Source: Somniosus microcephalus (taxonomy: Eukaryota). From it: DNA of 64,000 nt. Position numbers and translations under genes: made by a program. This document shows positions 5,401 to 64,000 of this stretch, one piece after another. The stretch's first letter is position 1, and every line of letters starts with the position of its first letter. The stretch spans positions 162,936,001 through 163,000,000 of the forward strand of contig CM126207.1 of NCBI GenBank assembly GCA_052327205.1, read 5' to 3'. The notes under the pieces were generated by a model, which was given only the letters and a program-made list of their open reading frames with translations, made no database searches and was not told where the DNA came from.

Positions 5401-7734
5401 TCAGCTGTGCGTAAGGAGGGCAGGGAGTGGGTAAGGAGGGCAGGGAGTGGGTAAGGAGAGTCGAGTGTGTGTAAGAACGGCCGGGTGTGAGTAAGGACGG
5501 CCGGGTGTGAGTAAGGAGGGTCATGTGTTGGTAAGGAGGGTCAGGTGTGTGTGAAGAGTGTCGGGTGTGAGTGAGGAGGGCTGGGTGTGGGTAAGGAGGG
5601 CCATGTGTGGGTAAGAAGGGTTGGGTTTGGGTAAGGAGGGCCGTGTGTGGGTAAGGATGGTCGGGTGTGTGTAAGGAGGGTAGGGTGTGGGTAAGGAGGG
5701 CCAGGTGTGGGTAAGGAGAGTCGTGTGTGGGTAAGGATAGTTGTGTGTGAGTAATGAGAGTGATGTGTGGGTAATGAGAGTGCTGTGTGGGTTAGGAGGG
5801 CCGGGTGTGGGTAAGGAGGGCCGGGTGTGGGTAAGGAGGGCCGGGTGTGGGTAAGGAGGGCTTGGTGTGGGGAAGGAGGGCCTGGTGTGGGTAAGGAGGG
5901 TTGGGTGTGGATAAGGAGGGCCGTGTTTGTGTAAGGAGGGTGGGGAGTGGCTTAGGAGGGTCGGGTGTGGGTGAGGAGGGCCGGGTATGGGTGAGGAGTG
6001 CCGGGTGTTGATAAGGAGGGCTGTGTGTGGGTAAGGTGGTCCGGGTGTGAGTAAGGAGGGCTGGGTGTGAGAAAGGAGGGTGGGGACTGCCTTAGTAGGG
6101 TCGGGTGTGGGTTACGAGGGTCGGGTGTAGGTAAGGATGGCTGTGTGTGGGTAAGGAGGGCAGTGTGTGGGTAAGGAGGGCTGTGTGTGGGTAAGGAGGG
6201 CCGAGCGTGGGTTTGGAGGGCCGGGAGTAGATAAGGAGGGTCGGGTATAGGTAAGGATGGCTGTGTGTGGGTAAGGGGGGCTGGGTGTGGGTAAGGAGGG
6301 CCGGGTGTGAGTAAGGATGCCCGGGTGTGAGTAAGGAGGGCCAGGTGTGAGTAAAGAGGGCCATGTGTGGGTAAGCAGGGCCTGGTGTGGGTAAAGAGGG
6401 CCGGGTGTGGTTTAGGTGGGCCGGGTGTGTGTTAGGAGGGCCGAGTGTGAGTAAGGATGGCCGGGTGTGGGTGAGGAGGGTCGTTTGTGGGTAAGGAGGG
6501 CCAGGTGTGGGTAAGGACAACCAGGTGTGTGTAAGGGGGGCCGTGTGTGAATAGGAAGGGCCGGCTGTCGGTAAGGAGGGCCGGATGTGTGTAAGGAGGG
6601 CCGGGAATGTGTTAGGAGGGCCGGGTGTGGGTTAAGAGGGTCAGGAATGGGGAAGGAGGGCCGGGTGTGGGTAAGGAGGGTCGGTTGTGGATAAGGAGGG
6701 CCTGGTGTGGGCAAAGAGGTCTGGGTGTGTGTAAGGATGGCCGTGTGTGGTTAAGGAGGGCCATGTGTGGGTAAGGAGGGTCGGGTTTGTGTAAGGAGGG
6801 TTGGGTGTTGGTGAGGATGGCCGGGTGTAGATAAGGATTGCCATGTGTGGGGAAGGAGGGCTGTGTGTGTGTAAGGAGGGTCGGCTGCATGTAAGGAGGG
6901 TCGGGTGTGGGTGAGGTGGGCCAGGTGTGAGTAAGGAGTGCCGAGCGTGTGTAAGGAGGGCTGGGTGTGTGTAAGGAGGGTTGGGTGTGGGTAAGGATTG
7001 TGGGAAGTGTGTAAGGAGGGCCGGCTGTGTGTAAGGAGAGTCGGGTGTGGGTAAGGAGAGCCGGGAGTGGGTAAGGGGGGCTGGGTGTTGGTAAGGAGTG
7101 CCGGGTGTGGGTAAGGAGGGCCGGGAGTGGGTAAGGAGGGCCGGCGATGTGCAAGGAGGGTGGAGTGTGGGTAAGGAGGGCCGGGTGTGGGTAAGGAGGG
7201 CCGGCTGTGGGTATGGAGGGCCATGTGTGGGCAAGGAGGGCCCGGTTTGTGTTAAGAGGGCCGGGTGTGGTTTAGGAGGGCCGAGTGTGATTAAGGAGGG
7301 CCGGGTGTGGGTGAGGAGGGCCAGGTGTGTGTAATGAGTGCCGAGTGTGTGTAAGGAGGGCCGGGTGTGTGTAAGGAGGGTCGTTTGTGTGTAAGGAGGG
7401 CCGGGTGTGTGTAAGGGGTCCAAGTGAGAATAAGAATGGCCGGGAGTGGGAATGGAGGGCCGGGTGTGGGTTCGGAGGGATGGGAGTGGGTAAGGAGGGC
7501 CCAGTGTGGGTTAGGATGGTTGGGAGTGTGTAAGGAGGGCCAGGTGTGAGTAAGGAGGGCCGGGTGTGAGTAAGAAGGGCCGGGTGTGAATAAGGTGGGC
7601 CGTGTGTGGGTAAGGAGGGCCATATGTGGGTAAGGAGGGCCGGGTGTGGGGTAGGAGAGTCGGGAGTGGGAAATGAGGGCCTGGTGTGGGTAAGGAGGTT
7701 CGGATGTGTATAAGGTGGGCCAGGGTGTGGGTAA
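2490..7734 (+). repeat. G-rich 20-bp minisatellite array, block 1 (consensus GGGTAAGGAGGGCCGGGTGT)
   Basis: 20-bp periodicity is directly visible, with diverged units. Confidence 0.97.
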
Positions 7735-8917
7735 TGTAAGGTTCGTAAGAATTTTGGGAAATTGCTACAGCCCCCGAAGATTATTTTTGACTAAAGAAAA
7801 CCTGGGTGGAATATAACTTAAAAACCCAGGGTATCAAAATGGCTGTCAGGCCTCGTGGCAGAAGACAAATACAGCCTGCTTGTATATCTTCAATCACGGG
7901 CTGACAAAGGATTTGAAAAAAACACCAGCCTGTGCGAATTTTGAAGTACTTGAAACTGTCAATCAACTGCAGTTTAGGACGTTTCACCCACAAGACAAAG
8001 GATGTTTGTTTACAGGACACTCTACAATGTTGACTCAAAGGCTTAAGTACTTAAAGCTGTCAATCAATTTCAGTTGGGCGGTGACCGCAGGACAATGCTT
8101 TGTTTCCAAAGCACTTGAGTGCTGTTGACTGAAATTCAGTAGGACATTTCAAACTGGTCGCAAGCCAGTCAAATGAATGGGAAAAAACATTCAAACCCAT
8201 TACAGTCAATGGGGACAGAGCGATCCCTTTTGTATAGCTCAGATACATCCAGATATAGGTGCCAAGATAACTGCTCCCAATGGGGTATAAAGATAGCCCC
8301 TCAGGAAGCCACATTCTCTCTCTGCTGCCTCGCCTCCGTGCCCTGCCTACAAGAAGAACAGCTCAGCAGCCCACCCAAAGAAGTGGAATACCAGCAGTTG
8401 CTTTCAATTACTGGGATATCTCTACTTCAGGGTGGTGAAGAATCCAAGGCAGACCGCAAGGGCACGGAGCAGGCATTTACTGGTGAGCATAAAACTTTCT
8501 GGCCCATTACAAGGCAACCTAGATAGGTAGAAGGGGTGGGAATTAAAGGGGAATTTTGTTAAATCGTAATTTTAGTCAATTTTCCCTTGATGTGTCCATT
8601 TCTCCTCCCCTATTAAGTAAAGGTGTCCTGTATTAAGCAAAAGAGTGTTGTATTAAGCAAAGGTGTGCTGTATTAAGCAAAGGTGTGTTGTATTTATTAT
8701 TTTCAATTTATTTCCTTTTATTTCAATAAATACTGGTCTTCTTTGCACCCAACCATGAGTCTCGTTTTGTCTATATCGCGACTGAAATAAGTGCAGCGGT
8801 CAGAACCAGAAAAGGGGAGCGATTCGAAACCACACAGGCCTCTGGAGCAGCTCAGATACTTCTGACTGGCTAGAGACAATAACCCCAGTACGAACAGCTC
8901 CCCCCCCTATTTCTACA
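7735..8917 (+). repeat. 5' LTR
   Basis: TG...CA ends; direct repeat of 10897-12957; AATAAA at ~8725; four internal 20-bp TATTAAGCAAAGGTGTGCTG-type units (~8611-8694). Confidence 0.93.
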
Positions 8918-43129: not shown

Positions 43130-45730
43130 TTATAGATTCAGTCTTTGGGGCGGCCTCCTGACCCTTTCGGGATAGCGCCTTTCCAGAGGTTCTTGTTCTT
43201 GGTGCCGAGGCGATTCTGACCCCTTTTCATCGGGTAGTTCATCGGCTTCCACTGCTACTGGGTCTGAAGTAGATGCTACCGGTATGTCGGGTTCATCCCC
43301 AGGTACTCGAGACATGGGGTTGAGGCGTTCCTGTGACGCTAAGATCTGATCGACGTGGCGTCTCACAATGTTCTCCCCAACATCCACTGTGTACATTAAT
43401 GGCCCCTGCCTTGTACATATCGTTCCGGGTTGCCACTTCTCTGTTCGATAGTCACGGGCCAAGACTGGTTGCCCTACATTTAAGCTCCTTGTCGGCTTCT
43501 CATTGATGTGCTGGAATTGTTTGTCCTCAACATTTCTTCGCACATTTGGTCTGAGCAAGTCCAGACGAGATCTCAACCTTCGGTTAAAGAACATCATGGC
43601 CGGGGTCTGGTTGGTAACTGCATGTGTCGCGTTTCAGTAGGCTAATAAGAAATTGTCCATCTTATGCTGTAGTGGAATTTCATCATCGCACATGGCCTTT
43701 ATCGCCTTCTTAAAGGTTTGTATGAACCTCTCAGCCAATCCATTTGTGGTTGGATGATACGGGGCGGATGTGTAATGCCTTACCCCATTCCTTTCCATGA
43801 ATTTTTAGAACTCGTCGGACACAAACTGTGGTCCACTATCAGAGCAAATCTGCTCTGGCAATCCGTTTCTGGCAAATATGGTCCTTAGGACTGCAATCGT
43901 TTTCTCTGTAGTGGTTGAAGACATTTTTATCACCTCAGGCCACTTTGAATGAGCATCCACTGCTATTAAGAACATTGAGTCCATGAATGGACCAGCGAAA
44001 TCAATATGCACCCGTTGCCATGGAGTGGAGGGCCACTCCCATGGGTGTAGAGGGGCATGTGGTGGTGCATTTTGGACCTTCTAGCATCCTGAGCAGCTCT
44101 TAGTTAGGTCTTCGATTTGTTGATCGATTCCCGGCCACCACACATAAACCATAGCAAGGCTTTTCATTTTCACTCCCCCCAGATGACCTTCATGTAGCTC
44201 ATTTAGCACTCTCTCCCTTAACTTGGGTGGAATCACCACTCTGGATCCACACATCACTGTCCCCTGGCATACTGACAGCTGTTCTCTTCTGGATGAGAAT
44301 GCTAGCAACAGTGAGTCGCCATGTGTTGGCCATCCCCTCACCGTCAATTCATATACCCGTGACAGCGTCGGATCATTGCGGGTCTCCTTCTCTATATCCG
44401 CGTTTGTTACTGGCAATCGAACAATTATTGACGAATAAAATATCTCGATAGGGTCCACTGCTGGTGCTTCCGCCACAGTAGGCAGTGGCAGGCGCGATAG
44501 CCCATTAGCGTTCCCATGCTGTTTCGTGCCTTTATATTCTATTTCATATTGATTCGCCCCTAGAAAAAGGGACCGTCTTTGTAACCGCTGTGCAGTCATC
44601 ACTGGAACGCCCTTCTTAGGATTAAAGATGGAGACAAGTGGTTGGTGGTCAGTCAGCAAGGTGAACTTCTGCCCATGCAGATAGTGGTTGAATTTTTTTA
44701 CTCCCCATACTAGGCTGAGGGCCTCCCTGTCAATCTGGGCGTAGTTGCGCTTGGCTGAGGTTAGTGACTGAGACGCAAATGCTACTGGCCTCTCCAACCT
44801 GTCTGGGAATTTGTGCGACAGCACCGCTCCAATACCGTAGGGTGATGCATCACATGCCAAACGAATTGGTAGTGCTGGGTTGAAATGGGCCAACACCTCT
44901 TTTGATGTGATCAATTCTTTACACTTCTGGAAAGCTCATCTACGTTCGTCATCCCACTTCCATGGTACCCCTGTTTGCAGTAGGGTGTTCAGCGGGTGTA
45001 ATACCGTAGACAAATTTGGTAAGAACTTGTGGTAGTTGTTTACCAGCCCGAGGAACGACCTCAGTTGTGACACATTTTCCGGCGCTGGAGCCTTGACTAT
45101 TGCCTCAATCTTGTCAGGGGACTTATGTAACCCCTCTTCATCGATGACGTGGCCACAATACGAGATCTGTTTCTGGAAAAACTCGCACTTGTGGCGATTA
45201 GCTCGTAGCCCATACTCCTTTAATCTGGTGAGCACCTTCTCCAAGTTGGCGAGGTGATCACCGTCATTTTCGCCCGTGACCAAGATGTCATCCAAATAAC
45301 ACTGGGTCCCTGGAATCCCTTGCAGGACCTAATCCATCGCCCTTTGCCAGATAGCCGGAGCCGAGGCTACTCCAAACACCAGCCGGTTGTATTGATAGAG
45401 ACCTTTATGAGTGTTGATCGTAAGGTAATGTTTTGAAGCTTCTTCTACCTCCATTTGCAAGTACGCCTGGGCTAGTTCAATTTTGGTGAAGCGTTTACCT
45501 CCAGATAGCGAGGCGAAAACATCCTCAATTCGTGGAAGTGGATATTGCACCGTGTGAAGGTCTGGGTTCACTGTCACCTTAAAATCCCCACAGATGCGGA
45601 CCTTCTTTGGTTCCCCAGGCGTATTACTCAACGACCTCTTCATTACAGGAACGATGGGTGTAGCCCACTCGCTCCAGTCCTCTTTGGACAGTACTCCTGA
45701 ATGTTCCAACCCATTCCAGCTCTGCTTCAA
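43130..45730 (-). pseudogene. Gypsy pol (RT, RNase H, integrase), broken by stops and frameshifts
   Basis: WATPIVPV..RICGDFK, LDDILVTG, LACDASPYGIGAVL, HEGHLG..CSGC and HIDFAGPF motifs spread over several short ORFs. Confidence 0.93.
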
Positions 45731-47132
45731 CCACTGGTCTGGCCTTCAGAAACTTTGGGCTTGCATTTTCCTCCATTTTAATCATTGCTGTTATTCCTTT
45801 TAGTGTTCCTAGTCCCTCCTGGAACACTTCTTTTGCGTCAGTTAGCATTTTTGACAGTCGTCCAGGTGTGACGTCGTCATCCTTTTTGGCCTCAACCTTC
45901 AGTGCCTGTATGGATTGCCAATCTAATTGTATCTTCCAGATCCATTCACGTCCTAGCAGTGGTGGTCCTCCATTTGGCAATACATATATATCCATTTTAG
46001 GTATTTCCTGGCCTTTATATGTCATTTTCACCCTTATTTTTCCTTTGGGGTAGACTTTTTGCCCCGTATACATTTTCAAGACAATCTCTGTAGCTTTCAA
46101 GGGTATGTGTGAAAATAGCCGCTTGTAGTCTCTTTGATTTATGACTGTTAGAGCTGACCCTGTGTCCAATTCCATTTCCACTTGGACCCCGTCTATCTTG
46201 AGTGTAACCCAGATAGTCTGGTGATCCTCCATTTTGGTTACCTTATGTAGATTCAGACAACCAAGCTCCTTGCTTCCGGAGTCTGTGTCACTTTTCTGTT
46301 CGTCTGAACCACTGTCCATCACCTGGTGTACCTTTTTGTGCTTCTCCTGTGGAGATTTCTTACTGTTGGTTTTCTTCCCAGACCTGCAGACTCTTGCTAT
46401 GTGTCCTGCTTTCCCACACTGTCTGCACACTTGGTCCTTGAACCAACAATCTTTCTGGTCATGTGTTGTTCTGCCGCAGCGATAGCACTTCCCTGTTCCA
46501 TAGGACATTTCATTGGTGCCATATTCTTGCGGTCTCCGTTGTATCTCTGCGGCGCCCCTTGCGGCTGCTTCGTGTGATACTGCCATACTGAAAGCTTTGT
46601 CTAGCATAAGGTCCTTTTCTGATAGAAGCCGTTTCTGCATTCCTTCACTTTGTAGCCCACACACAAACTTGTCCCTTAACGTATCTGCTAGTCCCGCTCC
46701 AAACTGGCAGTGTTTCGATAGCTTGCGCAGTTCCATTAGGTACTCAGCATTGCTTTCGTCTTTGTGTTGGTTCCTTTTATGGAACTTAAATCGTTCTGCT
46801 ATCAGCAGTGGTGTGGGGATTAAGTGATCCTGTAGGATTTCTACTATGCTTTCAAAATTCTTGTTTACCGGCTTCTCTGGGGTTATTAGATTTCGCAGAA
46901 ACCCATAAGTTTTTGTACCCATGGAATTTAACAGAACCAGTGCTTTATTAGCATCTGGCACTTCATTCGCCCTGCAGTACACCTCAATACGTTCCACATA
47001 TGTCGCCCAATCTTCGACTTCATTGTCGAACGTAGAGATACTGCCACTCTTCGGCATCCTTGGGTGTGAGTTAACTGTCACAAATGGCGCCTCCCGCTCT
47101 TCCCCTTCTTCTCCGCTGGCACAAAATGGCAT
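45624..47132 (-). pseudogene. Gypsy gag-protease
   Basis: Two CCHC knuckles (CYRCGRTTHDQKDC, CRQCGKAGHIARVC) and aspartyl protease motif LDTGS. Confidence 0.92.
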
Positions 47133-48324
47133 CTCCCGCGCTTTGCTTCCTTTCCACGCTCGCCTTTCTTCTCCGCTGTGGTTTCTAAAAATGGCACCTC
47201 CCGCGCTCTTCCTTCTTCTCCATGGCTCAATGGCGTCTCCCCTTTCTTCACCCCGCAGACCCTGTTCAGCCCGTGAGCACTGGCTGTGCTCTGCGCGTTC
47301 TTCTTTTTATATTTTTCGACGCCGCTCAGTCTAGAACCCGGCTGTTTCTTACCCTCTCTCTCTCCGGTTTGTTTTCTTTTTCTCGACGCCGCTCGGTGTT
47401 CAACCCTGGCTGCGCCCTGTACTCTTCACCCTCTGTCTTACCCCGTCGACGCTGCTCGGCTTTCTCTCCACCATCGGTTGGCTCCAGCCGCCGCTGCTCG
47501 GGAAGGGTCTGCGCTGGACCTGTTGTCGGTCTCTTACTGCTCGTTGTGGCTGGGGAACCAAGCCTGGCTCTCCACAGCCTCCTCTGCGAAGATGGATCTC
47601 TGCCTGACTGCTGGGTGGTTGCTCATGGTCGACGCCTGTGTTCCTGGCCTCGACTATTTTTTTTTTTTATTATTTATGTTGCAGGTAGATTCGAATCGGC
47701 ACTCGTCACCACTGTTGGATCCCTGGTTCAGTGGATATGCTATTATTAAATAATCACACGGATGCTGTACATTAGCAAAAAACAGGTCTTTACTGGAGGA
47801 GGGTAGTCTCTAGACTGGGGGTACAGAGGCATGCGCAAAGCCTATATACCGGTGTGGTCACTGCCGGTACTACAGTATACAGGAGCTGTAAAAGTAGTTC
47901 TGACTTAAAGGCACATACACTACACCATGCACCATGTGAACTACAGGTGTCCTTGCAGCAGCTGGCACAGCCGTCTGCTGACTCTCTGCCTGCGTCACCA
48001 GCTCCATACATTGACTGCCAGGTTGGTGCCCCTCGGCCTGTATACATGGGGGCTGAGGTTTACCAGCTGCTATGTACAGTCTGCCCTACGCTGCAGCCTG
48101 CAGTCCCACAATGCTCCTCGGAATCTTTGCCATCTAACCATGCGTAAAGTTGAATAAACACATCAGGACTTTCCTAGGTGCTGCACTCACTTTGCCACCA
48201 GAATATTGGTGGACACCTTGATTGTACACGATAGAGTATGAGAGTAAAGAGGCAATGATACCGTTGTATGCACCGATGGTTAAGCCACAGTTAGTGCACT
48301 GTTTTGGGAACCCCATTATCTAAC

Positions 48325-48851: not shown

Positions 48852-49043
48852 CATTTCCACTGTGGTGGCTGAGTGTATCCCTCCTGCTCTGTTGAAAGCC
48901 CAGGGAAAGTTGAGGAGTCCTGCACCAAGGGCTGATTTTAAGAGGATGAATACTGCTCCGAAGGAGGACAGACTTGACCTCCTGATGTCCAGAGAGTTTG
49001 GCTTGGCCAGGAGATTAATACTCTCTCTAGCAAGCTCCTCCAT
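48852..49043 (-). CDS. SLC38A8: First coding exon of a sodium-coupled neutral amino acid transporter 8-like gene
   Basis: [15 protein letters not shown]...[34 protein letters not shown]. The [15 protein letters not shown] motif fits SLC38A8 rather than SLC38A7 ([15 protein letters not shown]). 64 codons end at a phase-0 donor ATG|GTAAGT (intron starts at 48851). Confidence 0.9.
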
Positions 49044-49979
49044 CTGCACTAATCACTGCAATATTCTAGAGCTTCCTAACCTTCTCAGACGATGGCTCAT
49101 CTAGCCATGAATGGCCTCTCTTCCTGCTGCCCAATTCTTACTGGGATCTGATCCACCTCTTGTCTGGTAGAAAACTCTTCAGTCTACGAATGCAAGGATT
49201 GGTGGTCCTCTGGCCAATCAACTGCCTACAGAAGTTCTCTGCCAGCAGTCCGAGCTTGTTGGAGGAGCCGCCATTACCTTGCAGCTGTAACTGTATCAAG
49301 TCTCACATCAGCAGAGACCCAGCTAAAGCAGGAGCAAGATTGGAGGTGTCACTTCACCTGCCGGGATTTCAAAAGCAATCTGCATTTCCTTGAGAAAAAT
49401 TGCTCAATTTTTCAGCTTAAAATTGGCTGAAAACTTAATAGGATTTACAGCACATCGTTAGTTCGTATTACCGACACTCAAATCTGTCACTTCCAATTCA
49501 CTTTTTCGGCCGTAGTTTTAAAGAATGAGAATTATTCCAAATCTCTTTTCTGAGGTGGTGGGCTGTGGTCCAGTTAATTCTGCAATGTGAAGAATTCGCA
49601 AAAAGCTGGTTTCGTGAATTGGGCATTGACCTGTGAAATTCCAGGGATTGGGAAACTGGGCTTTGATGGGATTTCATAGGCCCAGGCCCACTCTTTAACA
49701 GGGACATCTCCGTGGGGCACTTTGGTATCTCAGCACTTTCAATCGACGGACATGTGCCCGCTGCTCTCGTGGACTCTTGGCAAGCACTATTCATCCATCA
49801 TTCCATCAGTCTTTCAGGGGGGAGACAGGGGAAAGAGGACTGGTCATGATTACCGAGAAAGGAATTGAAATTTCACAATGAATAAATCTTCAAATTTTTG
49901 TATATAGAATGTATATATTGTTCACTGGAATTTTCACACTGATTTGAAATTAGTGTGTGGTTATAATGGACCTTTATTG

Positions 49980-58852: not shown

Positions 58853-59560
58853 GGGGGGAGAAATTCAGTTGGTTAGCGCCTCCCATTAGCGCCTGGGGGC
58901 TCTAGCGGGATGCTAATGCAGTAGTGCCAGGACGAGACGAATCCAGTGCCACATGCCAAATCCAGTCGCCCCTTAGCACCGCCGCTCACACTGCCTGGGG
59001 CTTTAGTGCCAGGCAGATCATGACATCAGTGAATATGCAACCCTAACTGAACACCCGATTTACCAAATTAATTATCGTCCCCTGCCTTAGTGCCTCGCCA
59101 CGACAATGACAGGAAGAGGAGGTGTGATGAAGGCGGATGGCGGCTCCAGGCATGCTATTTAAAGGGAGGAGTCACAGCTGCCAGGTTAGTAATATTTCAC
59201 TGCTTCCTTCTCAATTTCAGATTGTGCAAGAGTTTAATTCAGTCATATAAAGGTTCTTTAGCATTAGGAGTGTTGTGGCTATTAAAAATTAGTTACATTT
59301 ATTCTGACGAAATTTCAAAGTGCTACACATCGTTACATTAATGGGGGCTGTACTGGCAGTTGACCTCACCCTCCAGCATCCACAGTGGAGGGAGCACAGG
59401 CAGCGAGAAAGACTGCAAGATGTTGCCAGAGGTAGGAGGAGGCCTTACCCCCTGAGGGTATTCCAATAGCACTTTTCCTACCTCCAATTAAGTGAGGAGT
59501 AGTCTATTAGAAGGTGCCACTTCAGCAAGGATGTGGTCACCGAATTCTGCTACCTCAGGC
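58853..59560 (+). mobile_element. PIF/Harbinger DNA transposon 5' remnant truncated by CR1
   Basis: Possible TIR start GGGGGGAGAAATTC. ~59436-59550 reads RRPYPLRVFQ*HFSYLQLSEE*SIRRCHFSKDVVTEFC, resembling a HARBI1/Harbinger transposase N-terminus, with stops. Confidence 0.6.
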
Positions 59561-59564
59561 AACC

Positions 59565-61275
59565 AGACAATTGTAAGGAAGGATATTAGCTCTGATGATG
59601 TGGAACCTGTATGGGTAGAACTGAGAAATACCAAGGGGCAGAAAACTTTAGTGGGAGTGGTATATACACCTTCAAACAGTAATGCGGAGGTTGGGGAAGC
59701 CATTAAAAGGGAAACTGGAGAAGCGTGCAATAAGGGCACAGGAGTCATTATGGGTGACTTTAATCTACATATAAATTGGGCTAACCAAATTAGTAACAAT
59801 ATTGTGGAGGAGGAATTCCTGGAGTGTTTACAGGATGGTTTCCTGGACCAATATGTCGAGGAACCAACCAGAGATCAGGCCATCTTAGTCTGGGTATTAT
59901 GTAACGAGAAACGATTAATTAACAATATTGTTGTACGAGGCCCATTGGGTCAGAGCGATCTTAATATGATAGAATTCTTCATTAAGATGGAGAATGAAGT
60001 TGTTGACTCAGAGACTAGGGTCCTGAATTTAAATAAAGGAAACTACGATGGTCTGAGGCGCAAATTGGGTAGGATTGATTGGGGAATGTCACTCAAAGGG
60101 TTGACGGTGGATAGGCAATGGCAAACATTCAAAGACTGCATGGATGAACTACAGAATTTGTTCATCCCAGTTCGGCATAAAAATAAAACAAAAAAGGTGA
60201 TTCAGCCGTGGCTAACAAGGGAAATTAGGGATAGCATAAGATCCAAGGAGAGGACATATAAATTGGCCAGAAAAAGCAGTAAACCTGAGGATTGGGAGCA
60301 GTTTAGGATTCAACAAAGGAGGACAAAGGGATTAATTAAGAAGGGGAAAATAGAATATGAGAGTAAGCTCGCAGGGAACATAAAAACTGACTGTAAAAGC
60401 TTTTATACATATGTGAAGAGAAAAAAATTGGTGAAGTCAAGCATAGGTCCCTTGCAGTCAGAAGCAGGGGAATTTATAATGGGGAACAAAGAAATGGCCG
60501 ACCAATTAAATATATATTTTGGTTCTGTCTTCACAAAGGAGGACACAAATAACCTCCCAGAGATGCCGGGGAACATAGGGTCTGATGAAAGGGAGGAACT
60601 GAAAGAAATCAGTATTTGTAGGGAAATCGTGTTACGGAAATTGATGGGATTGAAGGCCGGGAAATCCCCAGGGCCTGATAATCTACATCCTAGCGTACTT
60701 AAGGATGTGGCCCCAGAAATAGTAGATGCATTGCTGATCACCTTCCAACATTCGATGGAATCTGGAACAGTACCCATGGATTGGAGGGTAGCTAATGTCA
60801 CCCCACTATTCAAAAAAGGTGGTAGAGAGAAAACGGGGAATTACAGACCAGTAAGCCTGACATCGGTAGTGGGGAAAATGCTAGAGTCCATTATAAAAGA
60901 TGTAATAGCAGAGCACTTGGAAAACAGTGACAGGATCGGACAAAGTCAACATGGATTTACAAAGGGTAAATCGCGCTTGACTAATCTACTGGAATTTTTT
61001 GAGGATGTAACTTGTAAAATAGATAAGGGAGAACCAGTGGATGTGGTGTATTTGGACTTTCAGAAGACTTTTGATAAGGTCCCGCATAAGAGATTAGCGT
61101 GTAAAGTTAAGGCTCATGGGATTGGGGGCAAGGTACTGACTTGGATAGAGAACTGGTTGGCAGACAGAAGGCAAAGAGTTGGAATACACGGGTCTTTTTC
61201 TGAGTGGCAGGCAGTGACTAGTGGGGTACTGTCTGGTTCGGTCCTTGGACCCCAGCTATTCACAATATATATTAA
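59565..61275 (+). mobile_element. CR1 LINE ORF2 (partial APE endonuclease plus RT), open frame, cut at 61275
   Basis: ORF 59492..61279 contains IMGDFN, KSPGPDNLHP, NYRPVSLTS, QHGFTKG, YLDFQKTFDKV and GSVLGPQLFTIYIN. Confidence 0.95.
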
Positions 61276-61310
61276 CTAGCTGAAGTGCCCGGCGGTGCCG
61301 AGGGATTTTT
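61276..61310 (-). mobile_element. Helitron 3' terminus
   Basis: Minus strand reads CCCTCGGC-ACC-GCCGGG (hairpin), CACTTCAG, CTAG, then T. It sits exactly where the CR1 would read ATTAA|TGA, an A|T target. Confidence 0.8.
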
Positions 61311-61329
61311 GAGGGCATGTTGTTGTTGG

Positions 61330-62200
61330 AAGAGAGAGAGAGAGAGAGAGAGAGCGACTGGGGGGAAGAGAGAGCGCGACTGGGGGGAAGAGAGAGAGCG
61401 GCTGGGGGGGAAGAGAAAGAGCGACTGGGGGGAAGAGAGAGCGCGACTGGGGGGAAGTGGGGGAAGGTGGTGGGGGGAAGGGGGGAAGAGGGGGGAAGTG
61501 GGGGAAGGGGGAAAGGGGAGGGGAGGGGGGAAGGGGGGGAGNNNNNNNNNNNNNNNNNNNNNNNNNNNNNNNNNNNNNNNNNNNNNNNNNNNNNNNNNNN
61601 NNNNNNNNNNNNNNNNNNNNNNNNNNNNNNNNNNNNNNNNNNNNNNNNNNNNNNNNNNNNNNNNNNNNNNNNNNNNNNNNNNNNNNNNNNNNNNNNNNNN
61701 NNNNNNNNNNNNNNNNNNNNNNNNNNNNNNNNNNNNNNNNNNNNNNNNNNNNNNNNNNNNNNNNNNNNNNNNNNNNNNNNNNNNNNNNNNNNNNNNNNNN
61801 NNNNNNNNNNNNNNNNNNNNNNNNNNNNNNNNNNNNNNNNNNNNNNNNNNNNNNNNNNNNNNNNNNNNNNNNNNNNNNNNNNNNNNNNNNNNNNNNNNNN
61901 NNNNNNNNNNNNNNNNNNNNNNNNNNNNNNNNNNNNNNNNNNNNNNNNNNNNNNNNNNNNNNNNNNNNNNNNNNNNNGGAGAGGAAGGGGAGAGGAGAGG
62001 GGAGGGGGAGAGGAGGGGGAGGGGGAGAGTGGGGGGAGGGGAGGGGGAGAGGGGGGAGGAGGGGGAGAGTGGAGGGGAGGGGGCAGGGGGGGAGAGGAGG
62101 GGGAGAGGGGAGGGTGGAGGGGAGGGGGGAGGGGAGGGGGAGAGGGGGGGAGAGGTGGGGGAGGTGGGGGAAGGTCGGGGGGAGAAAGGGAGGGGGGAGC
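61330..62200. repeat. Purine-rich low-complexity tract around an assembly gap (N 61542-61977)
   Basis: (GA)n, short GAGAGCGCGACTGGGGGGAA repeats and G/A runs on both sides of the Ns. Confidence 0.9.
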
Positions 62201-62560
62201 CAGCAGACCCTCTCCCCTCTGCCGCCGATGGCTCCGCTGAGCTCCGCCGCTCCATGCACTGACATGACGAGCGCAGCGCCCCGGTCAGCCCGAGCCCAGC
62301 CCTCCTGAGGCCGGGCCTGATGCGGCTTGAGATGGCCGATTGCGGCTGGCCGGGCCCGGTTGCCGGGGCAACCCTCTCCGCTCCCCTTATCCTCCCGAGC
62401 CCCGCCCCCCCGCTATCCTGCTCGCTTCCCTCTGGCCGTGCTCTGTGTGGAGGTGCGCGTGCGCCGTGCTGCGCAAGCGCGAGGAGCTTTCAGTGCGTCC
62501 AGCCAGCCTTTACCAAGATGCTGGCCGCTGGTTTGGAATCGGGCCCAGCGCGGGGGGTGG
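62200..62560. promoter_or_regulatory. CpG-island-like segment
   Basis: High GC and CpG density, GC box CCCCGCCCC (~62400) and NRF1-like TGCGCGTGCGC (~62454). Confidence 0.6.
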
Positions 62561-62796
62561 GGGGTGAGGGGTGGGAGGAGCTTGCCACTAAACAATTGCC
62601 TGGGGTCCAGCATGGCTGGCAACAGATGCCCAGGCTTCGAGGCCTACCTGCAAAAACGGGGAAAGGTAGGAAAATTAATGAGATTAGGTAAAAGATTTAG
62701 AAAGTAATTAACTTTTTTTTAAAACAATATGTGTTTTAAAAGCAATTTTTTTTTAAAGACACAGAAAGCGGGAAAAAGAAATGAAAAGTTTGGAAT

Positions 62797-63010
62797 CAAG
62801 ATGGCGGCGACTCACCTCGGTTCAGAACGATAAGCCCCACCCACGCACGCACCGATTGGTCGACTGTCAGGTCACCGAAGCGTAGGATTGGTCAATTGTC
62901 CCGTCACTCGACTCTAGGAGGGCCCGCCCGCACACGCCAGGAACCCGCCCCCGCCACGCAGCGTTTGGTCGACCGTCGGGTCAGCCGACCGTACGATTGG
63001 TCGACCTCGA
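62797..63010 (-). promoter_or_regulatory. CCAAT/GC-box promoter with a short first exon ending at a GAG|GTGAGT donor (62816) and a YY1 motif
   Basis: ATTGG at 62855, 62887 and 62996 (TTTGG at 62964); GC boxes ~62923-62952; CAAGATGGCGGC at 62797-62808; ACTCAC at 62810-62815. Confidence 0.65.
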
Positions 63011-63050
63011 CGTCATTCAATGCTAATGAGCAGATAATGAGTGGAATTTT

Positions 63051-63860
63051 AGAACATAAGAACATAAGAACATAAGAAATAGGAGCAGGAGTAGGCCAAT
63101 CGGCCCCTCGAGCCTGCTCCACCATTCAATAAGATCATGGCTGATCTGATCCTAACCTCAAATCTTCTATCACTCTGCATCCAACCTAACCCATGTGATC
63201 TCCCGGGAGAGGCGAAAAACCAGATAACGACCCTATGGCCAATTTGGGAGAAAAAAATCTGGGAAATTCCTCTCCGACCCATCTAGGCGATCGAAATTCT
63301 TCCAGGAGATCACTCTGTCCCTATATTTTCTACAGGACTTACCTTCTGTAAAGGCAATCTCCACCCCAGCCAGGAACAGGAATAAAACCATCTCCTGAAA
63401 TCTAACAGAATTAGAACACAGTAGGAGCAGAACAAGGCTACACAGCCCCTGGGCCCACTACACTACCCACAGGGCCATGACCATTCCGAACCTAGACTCA
63501 TGTCCAATTTCCTGCCCGCTCCCCGTAACCCTTAATTCCCTTTACTTCTAGGAAACTATCTATTTCTGTTTTAAATTTATTTAATGATGTAGCTTCCACA
63601 GCTTTCTGGGGCAGCAAATTCCACAAACCTACCACCCTCTGAGTGAAGAAGTTTCTCCTCATCTCAGTTTTGAAAGAGCAGCCCCTTATTTTAAGATTAT
63701 GCCCCCTAGTTCTAGTTTCACCCATCATTGGGAACATCCTCACCGCATCCACCCGATCAAGCCCCTTCACAATCTTATATGTTTCAATAAGATCGCCTCT
63801 CATTCTTCTGAACTCCAATGAGTAGAGTCCCAATCTACTCAACCTCTCCTCATATGACCT
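63051..63860 (-). mobile_element. CR1 LINE 3' fragment
   Basis: YEERLSRLGLYSLEFRRMRGDLIETYK..RNFFTQRVV motifs; (AGAACATA)n tail. Confidence 0.93.
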
Positions 63861-64000
63861 CATTTTGAACGTTATTTGGATACCGCGGGCACAATTTTTG
63901 TCTCACCGAAACGTAAATATGCTTACAACCATTCTGGAATCGTAAGCTTTCTTTTGATGTAACACCCGTGTAGGTACGCTCTATAACTTTTGATTGTATA

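Follow-up and report, generated by a model that had tools for sequence, protein, structure and literature searches.

A complete non-autonomous Helitron upstream of SLC38A8 in a shark most likely carries its own decayed promoter

The window analysed here is a stretch of 64,000 nucleotides of the Somniosus microcephalus genome (assembly GCA_052327205.1, contig CM126207.1, positions 162,936,001 to 163,000,000 of the forward strand). Its minus strand carries the first coding exon of SLC38A8 (48852..49043), which a homologue search found to be 92–94% identical to named shark SLC38A8. The ATG is at 49043, and a CCAAT pair of the gene's own lies about 160 bases upstream of it, at 49198 and 49214. No other SLC38A8 exon falls within the window, intron 1 apparently being longer than 48 kb. 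The exon was not among the matches listed in a strict first-look genome search with Pfam Aa_trans, no run was among the matches listed when it was queried against RNA runs, and a PDB search returned nothing informative for it.

Upstream of SLC38A8 lies the left half of a CR1 LINE ORF2, comprising endonuclease and reverse transcriptase (59492..61275, plus strand; Pfam RVT_1, E 1.7e-19), whose frame of 595 aa halts at A|CTAG (61275|61276). The first-pass annotation had read this as an open reverse transcriptase frame that stops at an A|T junction and does not resume in the window, had noted a GC hairpin with CTAG on the minus strand, had proposed a Helitron terminus there, and had suggested extending the sequence rightward in search of a TC end followed by the rest of the CR1. 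All of these points held. The Helitron (61276..64000, minus strand) runs on to virtual position 64056, 56 bases right of the window in the neighbouring stretch, and the right half of the CR1 restarts directly past it, outside the window, at virtual position 64057; a 5′ end or a CR1 continuation hidden inside the N stretch of the element is thus ruled out. When aligned separately, the two CR1 halves sit back to back on six independent CR1 copies, with a half-to-half offset of 1 (the target T), or 2 in the most distant copy. Since the CR1 halves are contiguous once the Helitron is left out, the insertion took place at A|T without duplication. Pieces of what we take to be a Gypsy-like LTR retrotransposon occur just right of the resumed CR1 (L031, 4230-6000; loci are cited by our own L numbers) and also at 43800-47300 of the window, just inside SLC38A8 intron 1.

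The element is 2781 bases long, its N stretch and a nested CR1 included. On the minus strand it starts as A|TCTATATATATAAA, that is, with the TC required of a canonical Helitron (HLE1). Its 3′ terminus (61276..61304) consists of an imperfect GC hairpin (61288-61304), an 8-base spacer and CTAG (61276-61279), in agreement with the CTRR of Helitron 3′ ends, and the same first base was found in 29 of 30 loci. An A adjoins the 3′ end in all 30, three of which have one common flank. A genome search with this end gave at least 984 candidates, the best 40 of them identical. The stem-loop has a folding energy of −4.9 kcal/mol and a z score of −0.76 against shuffled sequences, and so no extra stability by itself; its standing as the probable Helitron hairpin comes from conservation across many copies. 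The hairpin region is also the part that the most distant RepHel-coding copies retain (last 30 bases, 90–100%). Among 15 distinct full copies, 10 sit in a strict A|T, three abut the CTAG of another Helitron and two have another right flank, with no consistent target duplication. The published hallmarks of HLE1, or Helitron1, are a 5′ TC, a 3′ hairpin with CTAG, an A|T target and no duplication (PMC11417382). The window element and canonical HLE1 are alike in the TC, the CTAG, the A|T target without duplication and the ends shared with RepHel copies, and probably in the hairpin, and we see no difference in kind. Assigned to its group by ends and target alone, the element is a non-autonomous canonical Helitron. 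Its 5′ subterminal region (63867..64000) is common to short and RepHel-coding copies. No description of this shark Helitron family was among the papers listed in a literature search, and an Rfam scan over the whole element gave no match at E 0.1.

The interior of the element holds, next to the 3′ terminus, a repeat tract that is pyrimidine-rich in the sense of the element (61330..62199, with N at 61542-61977) and has five strong AG acceptor-like sites at 61358-61447. Other copies carry the parts in the same order as the window element, and the distance from the 3′ end to the CpG-rich block described below is 924 bases here versus 376-1046 in other copies. Given that the right-hand ends were found and that order and spacing match those of other copies, the evidence favours a Helitron that is continuous across its N stretch. 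A second CR1 piece, missed in the first pass, separates the CCAAT array from the 5′ end; it is a 3′ fragment (63051..63861, minus strand) with an ATTTT duplication of 5 bases and a (TTCTTATG)n tail, and we take it to be CR1 from its likeness to other CR1 ends. It is not at the same point in the other Helitron copies examined, and by this comparison it is younger than the Helitron.

Two further blocks make up the rest of the interior, both on the minus strand. The CpG-rich block (62200..62660) contains an RFX X-box-like sequence (62359-62372), a GC box (62401) and an acceptor-like site (62648). The CCAAT/donor block (62790..63050), which was aligned to the 5′ ends of six RepHel-coding copies, has CCAAT boxes at 62855, 62887 and 62996, GC boxes, a short exon ending in the donor GAG|GTGAGT (62816|62815) and a YY1-like site (62797-62808). 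Both blocks had been proposed as separate units in the first pass, with the span 62200-63050 to be searched for multiple copies linked to the same terminus, and genome searches bore this out: they returned at least 2815 candidates for the CpG block and at least 3177 for the CCAAT/donor block, and an 18-base donor motif had 13,192 exact matches versus none for its reversed control, which rules out that the blocks are single-copy. Three donor blocks were found in two of 20 evenly picked 10-kb stretches. The copies, spanning 1.3–2 kb, are joined to Helitron ends in the order 3′ end, CpG block, donor, CCAAT array and 5′ end. Three reading frames across the blocks, two of them in the CpG block, had no Pfam match, and the idea of coding cargo was set aside. 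Compared with the majority of the 29 closest copies, the block in the window differs at 13 of 291 bases. Seven of these changes are CpG transitions; one change abolishes a CCAAT box and two strike the exon-proximal GC box. The pattern fits methylation and neutral decay, and the CCAAT/donor promoter block is probably silent in this copy.

The coding relatives of the element proved informative about the nature of the block. The best RepHel relatives listed were 50–60% identical and mostly unnamed or invertebrate. Among 407 RepHel candidates in the genome, the upstream regions of 29 loci were read, these being a non-random choice, for long frames, from 150 listed; the domains Helitron_like_N and PIF1 were confirmed for one RepHel locus. 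Six of nine loci read on both sides have the 5′ subterminal piece and the 3′ end in common with the window element. The CCAAT/donor block stands upstream of RepHel in sense, and is closely alignable, in 12 of the 29; being placed ahead of the ATG acceptor there, it is not foreign to the autonomous element as cargo of the HelibatN3 type would be. Within the stretch read it is absent from the other 17, some of which have other exon/donor modules and some N stretches. Mapping of the RepHel start codon succeeded for 21 loci, of which 19 show a T-rich tract with an AG a single base ahead of the ATG. Ten of the 21 also bear the block, and in eight of those no other donor of this type stands between its donor and the acceptor. 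A compact case is L136, with its 5′ end at 7235, donor at 7625, acceptor at 8127 and ATG at 8129, giving an intron of 503 bases. Diverged counterparts of the CpG block (65–77%) were likewise found in the 5′ regions of the RepHel-coding loci L152, L145 and L124.

The layout suggests that the CCAAT/donor block is likely the promoter of the RepHel transposase together with a noncoding exon 1. In coding copies, transcription would begin in this block and the donor would be spliced to the ATG acceptor across an intron of 0.5–3.6 kb. Internal deletion of the RepHel gene would have produced the short copies, leaving the promoter block behind, and these would have been mobilised in trans by RepHel. 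The copy in the window would afterwards have been methylated and then struck by the second CR1. Just before the hairpin, the subterminal sequence of the short copies (window positions 61305-61325) resembles the RepHel acceptor-plus-start of one subfamily (L116, 8517-8545) minus the AG, a likeness that perhaps records where the deletion fell but could be coincidental.

RNA from a related organism was mapped on L136 as two runs (X4 and X5) with two contig sets. A donor-to-acceptor joint was not among the nine joints listed, from a calling that would miss a very short exon 1 and left 453 further loose-end rows outside the listing. Between 120 and 376 reads per row pass unspliced through the donor into the intron, and reads fall on both strands of the block, which is what copies lying within other transcripts would give. 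At the RepHel acceptor the depth of X4 climbs from 0.6/3.8 before to 12/60 after, with a strand bias consistent with sense RNA given the usual stranded library type; the signal of X5 is weaker (to 0/7). Many copies retain RepHel frames of more than 1,400 codons (C5:124114328, C9:119840093, C4:135496465 and others), and reads at the RepHel start are present in the related organism; the family may therefore have been active recently.

Taken together, these observations give us considerable confidence that the Helitron in the window, complete and non-autonomous, is an ordinary member of a very large shark family and that the promoter it carries, now decayed, is most likely its own. The promoter is most likely that of the transposase because of the 13,192 donor copies, the occurrence of the block in 12 of the 29 RepHel loci and the ATG acceptors in 19 of 21. 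The suggestion of the first pass that the element carries captured 5′ gene ends is not supported: RepHel-coding members of the family have the block as their probable 5′ regulatory region, and no host donor was found among the best matches. That search scored 40 candidates each time, a depth at which a diverged donor gene could escape. Around the best non-self CpG-block loci, a Helitron end or promoter block lies within 1.5 kb in 27 of 29; the other two, L078 and L080, turned out to be copies broken by Harbinger inserts and were rejected as possible host sources of the block.

It is still conceivable, though we think it unlikely, that the CCAAT/donor block or the CpG block was captured from a host 5′ gene end in ancient times and later adopted as the promoter of the autonomous element, in which case "own" and "captured" would each be true at different times. 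The RepHel subfamilies have a 5′ end in common but differ in what follows it: four or more distinct exon/donor modules occur, and a single element may hold several in a stack (varied modules occur in L120, L124, L126, L143, L149, L152 and L155). Since 17 of the 29 loci have no such block within the stretch read and some have other modules, the 5′ region is a modular one, to which a host gene could have contributed. The motifs of the block are those of vertebrate CpG-island promoters. Helitron capture is biased toward 5′ gene ends in bats and Xenopus, according to two papers (PMC4224331, PMC12001565). Against such an origin, however, stand the missing donor and the Helitron surroundings of the CpG-block loci, the three frames without a Pfam match, and the GTGAGTGGC that follows the donor in three of the four modules and is consistent with divergence from one Helitron module. 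A broader version, in which Helitrons swap promoter/first-exon modules, some of them host-derived, that drive the transposase, and in which the more than 13,000 seeded cassettes include some that are first exons of host genes, possibly of SLC38A8, strikes us as quite improbable.

The first pass had placed the minus-strand block about 14 kb upstream of the SLC38A8 start; the donor at 62816 is indeed on the same strand, 13.8 kb from the ATG, and it is intact and has three CCAAT boxes behind it. An AG stands immediately before the SLC38A8 ATG, and HelibatN3 is described as acting in this way in bats and HeLa cells (PMC4778049). That SLC38A8 gains an alternative start and first exon here, with the donor at 62816 joined to an acceptor near 49043 as in a HelibatN3-like exon trap, is nevertheless very unlikely in our estimation. 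When pyrimidines are simply counted as a crude measure, no AG near the ATG does better than 8 of 16; 151 of the 418 intervening acceptor-like sites rank above this value, and six of the eight strongest such sites lie inside the element, the first of them only 168 bases from the donor. Ten AATAAA motifs occur between the donor and the ATG, a CCAAT pair near 49200 belongs to SLC38A8 itself, and this copy shows CpG decay and a lost CCAAT box. Assuming a uniform spread, an exact donor on the same strand would lie this close by chance in 1.4% of genes, or about 280 genes if 20,000 are assumed. The stronger internal acceptors, the weak acceptors at the ATG, the decay and this chance proximity are what make the alternative start unlikely, and an element with its own decayed promoter remains the preferred reading.

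Within the element, a near-palindromic site (62721..62737), empty here, is occupied by Harbinger-type transposons in other copies. The inserts are at the equivalent site in all 11 interrupted copies examined (L067, L073, L076, L077, L078, L080, L084, L087, L089, L091 and L092; 12 were seen among 29, L083 being left out), and a further case of 7.8 kb spans L134-L135. They have similar inverted ends, different interiors and both orientations, and the insert in L080 codes for a DDE_Tnp_4 transposase. The site is a Harbinger-type hot spot. It resembles the palindromic target of Harbinger3_DR (PMC3016246); a literature search on the target motif gave no match. Family copies also stack head to tail, often right behind a RepHel-coding copy (L128-L129 14149-20000, L118-L119 14484-16450, L012, L055 and L079). 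Three loci spaced at about 30 kb (L017, L018 and L019; C2:63.53-63.59 Mb) share one flank and represent a tandem segmental triplication.

The locus itself, a single decayed copy of a very common element, is of little significance; the family has more than 13,000 donor cassettes genome-wide. What the family offers is the likely transcription layout of an autonomous vertebrate Helitron, namely a 5′ CCAAT promoter, a short noncoding exon and an acceptor at the ATG. It also cautions against reading promoter-like sequence in a Helitron as captured before the autonomous partner has been checked.

Two vertebrate systems invite comparison. Heli1Xen1 of Xenopus laevis is a Helitron1 that starts with TC..TATATAAA and ends with CTAG as the window family does; its hairpin differs (CCCGTTA..TAACGGG), and the likeness is drawn from the described features (PMC12001565). 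The coding copy of Heli1Xen1 has a 5′ "presumed promoter" with ChIP peaks of myb, foxn4, rfx2, foxj1 and ep300, which provides a precedent for a Helitron with its own promoter (PMC12001565). HelibatN3 of Myotis is likewise a short Helitron that has spread a promoter and splice donor in thousands of copies and is a potential exon trap, and what it carries is the promoter, first exon and donor of NUBPL (PMC4778049, PMC4224331). The HelibatN3 block has a known single-copy host donor and coding codons, whereas the block in the window maps to the element's own RepHel gene.
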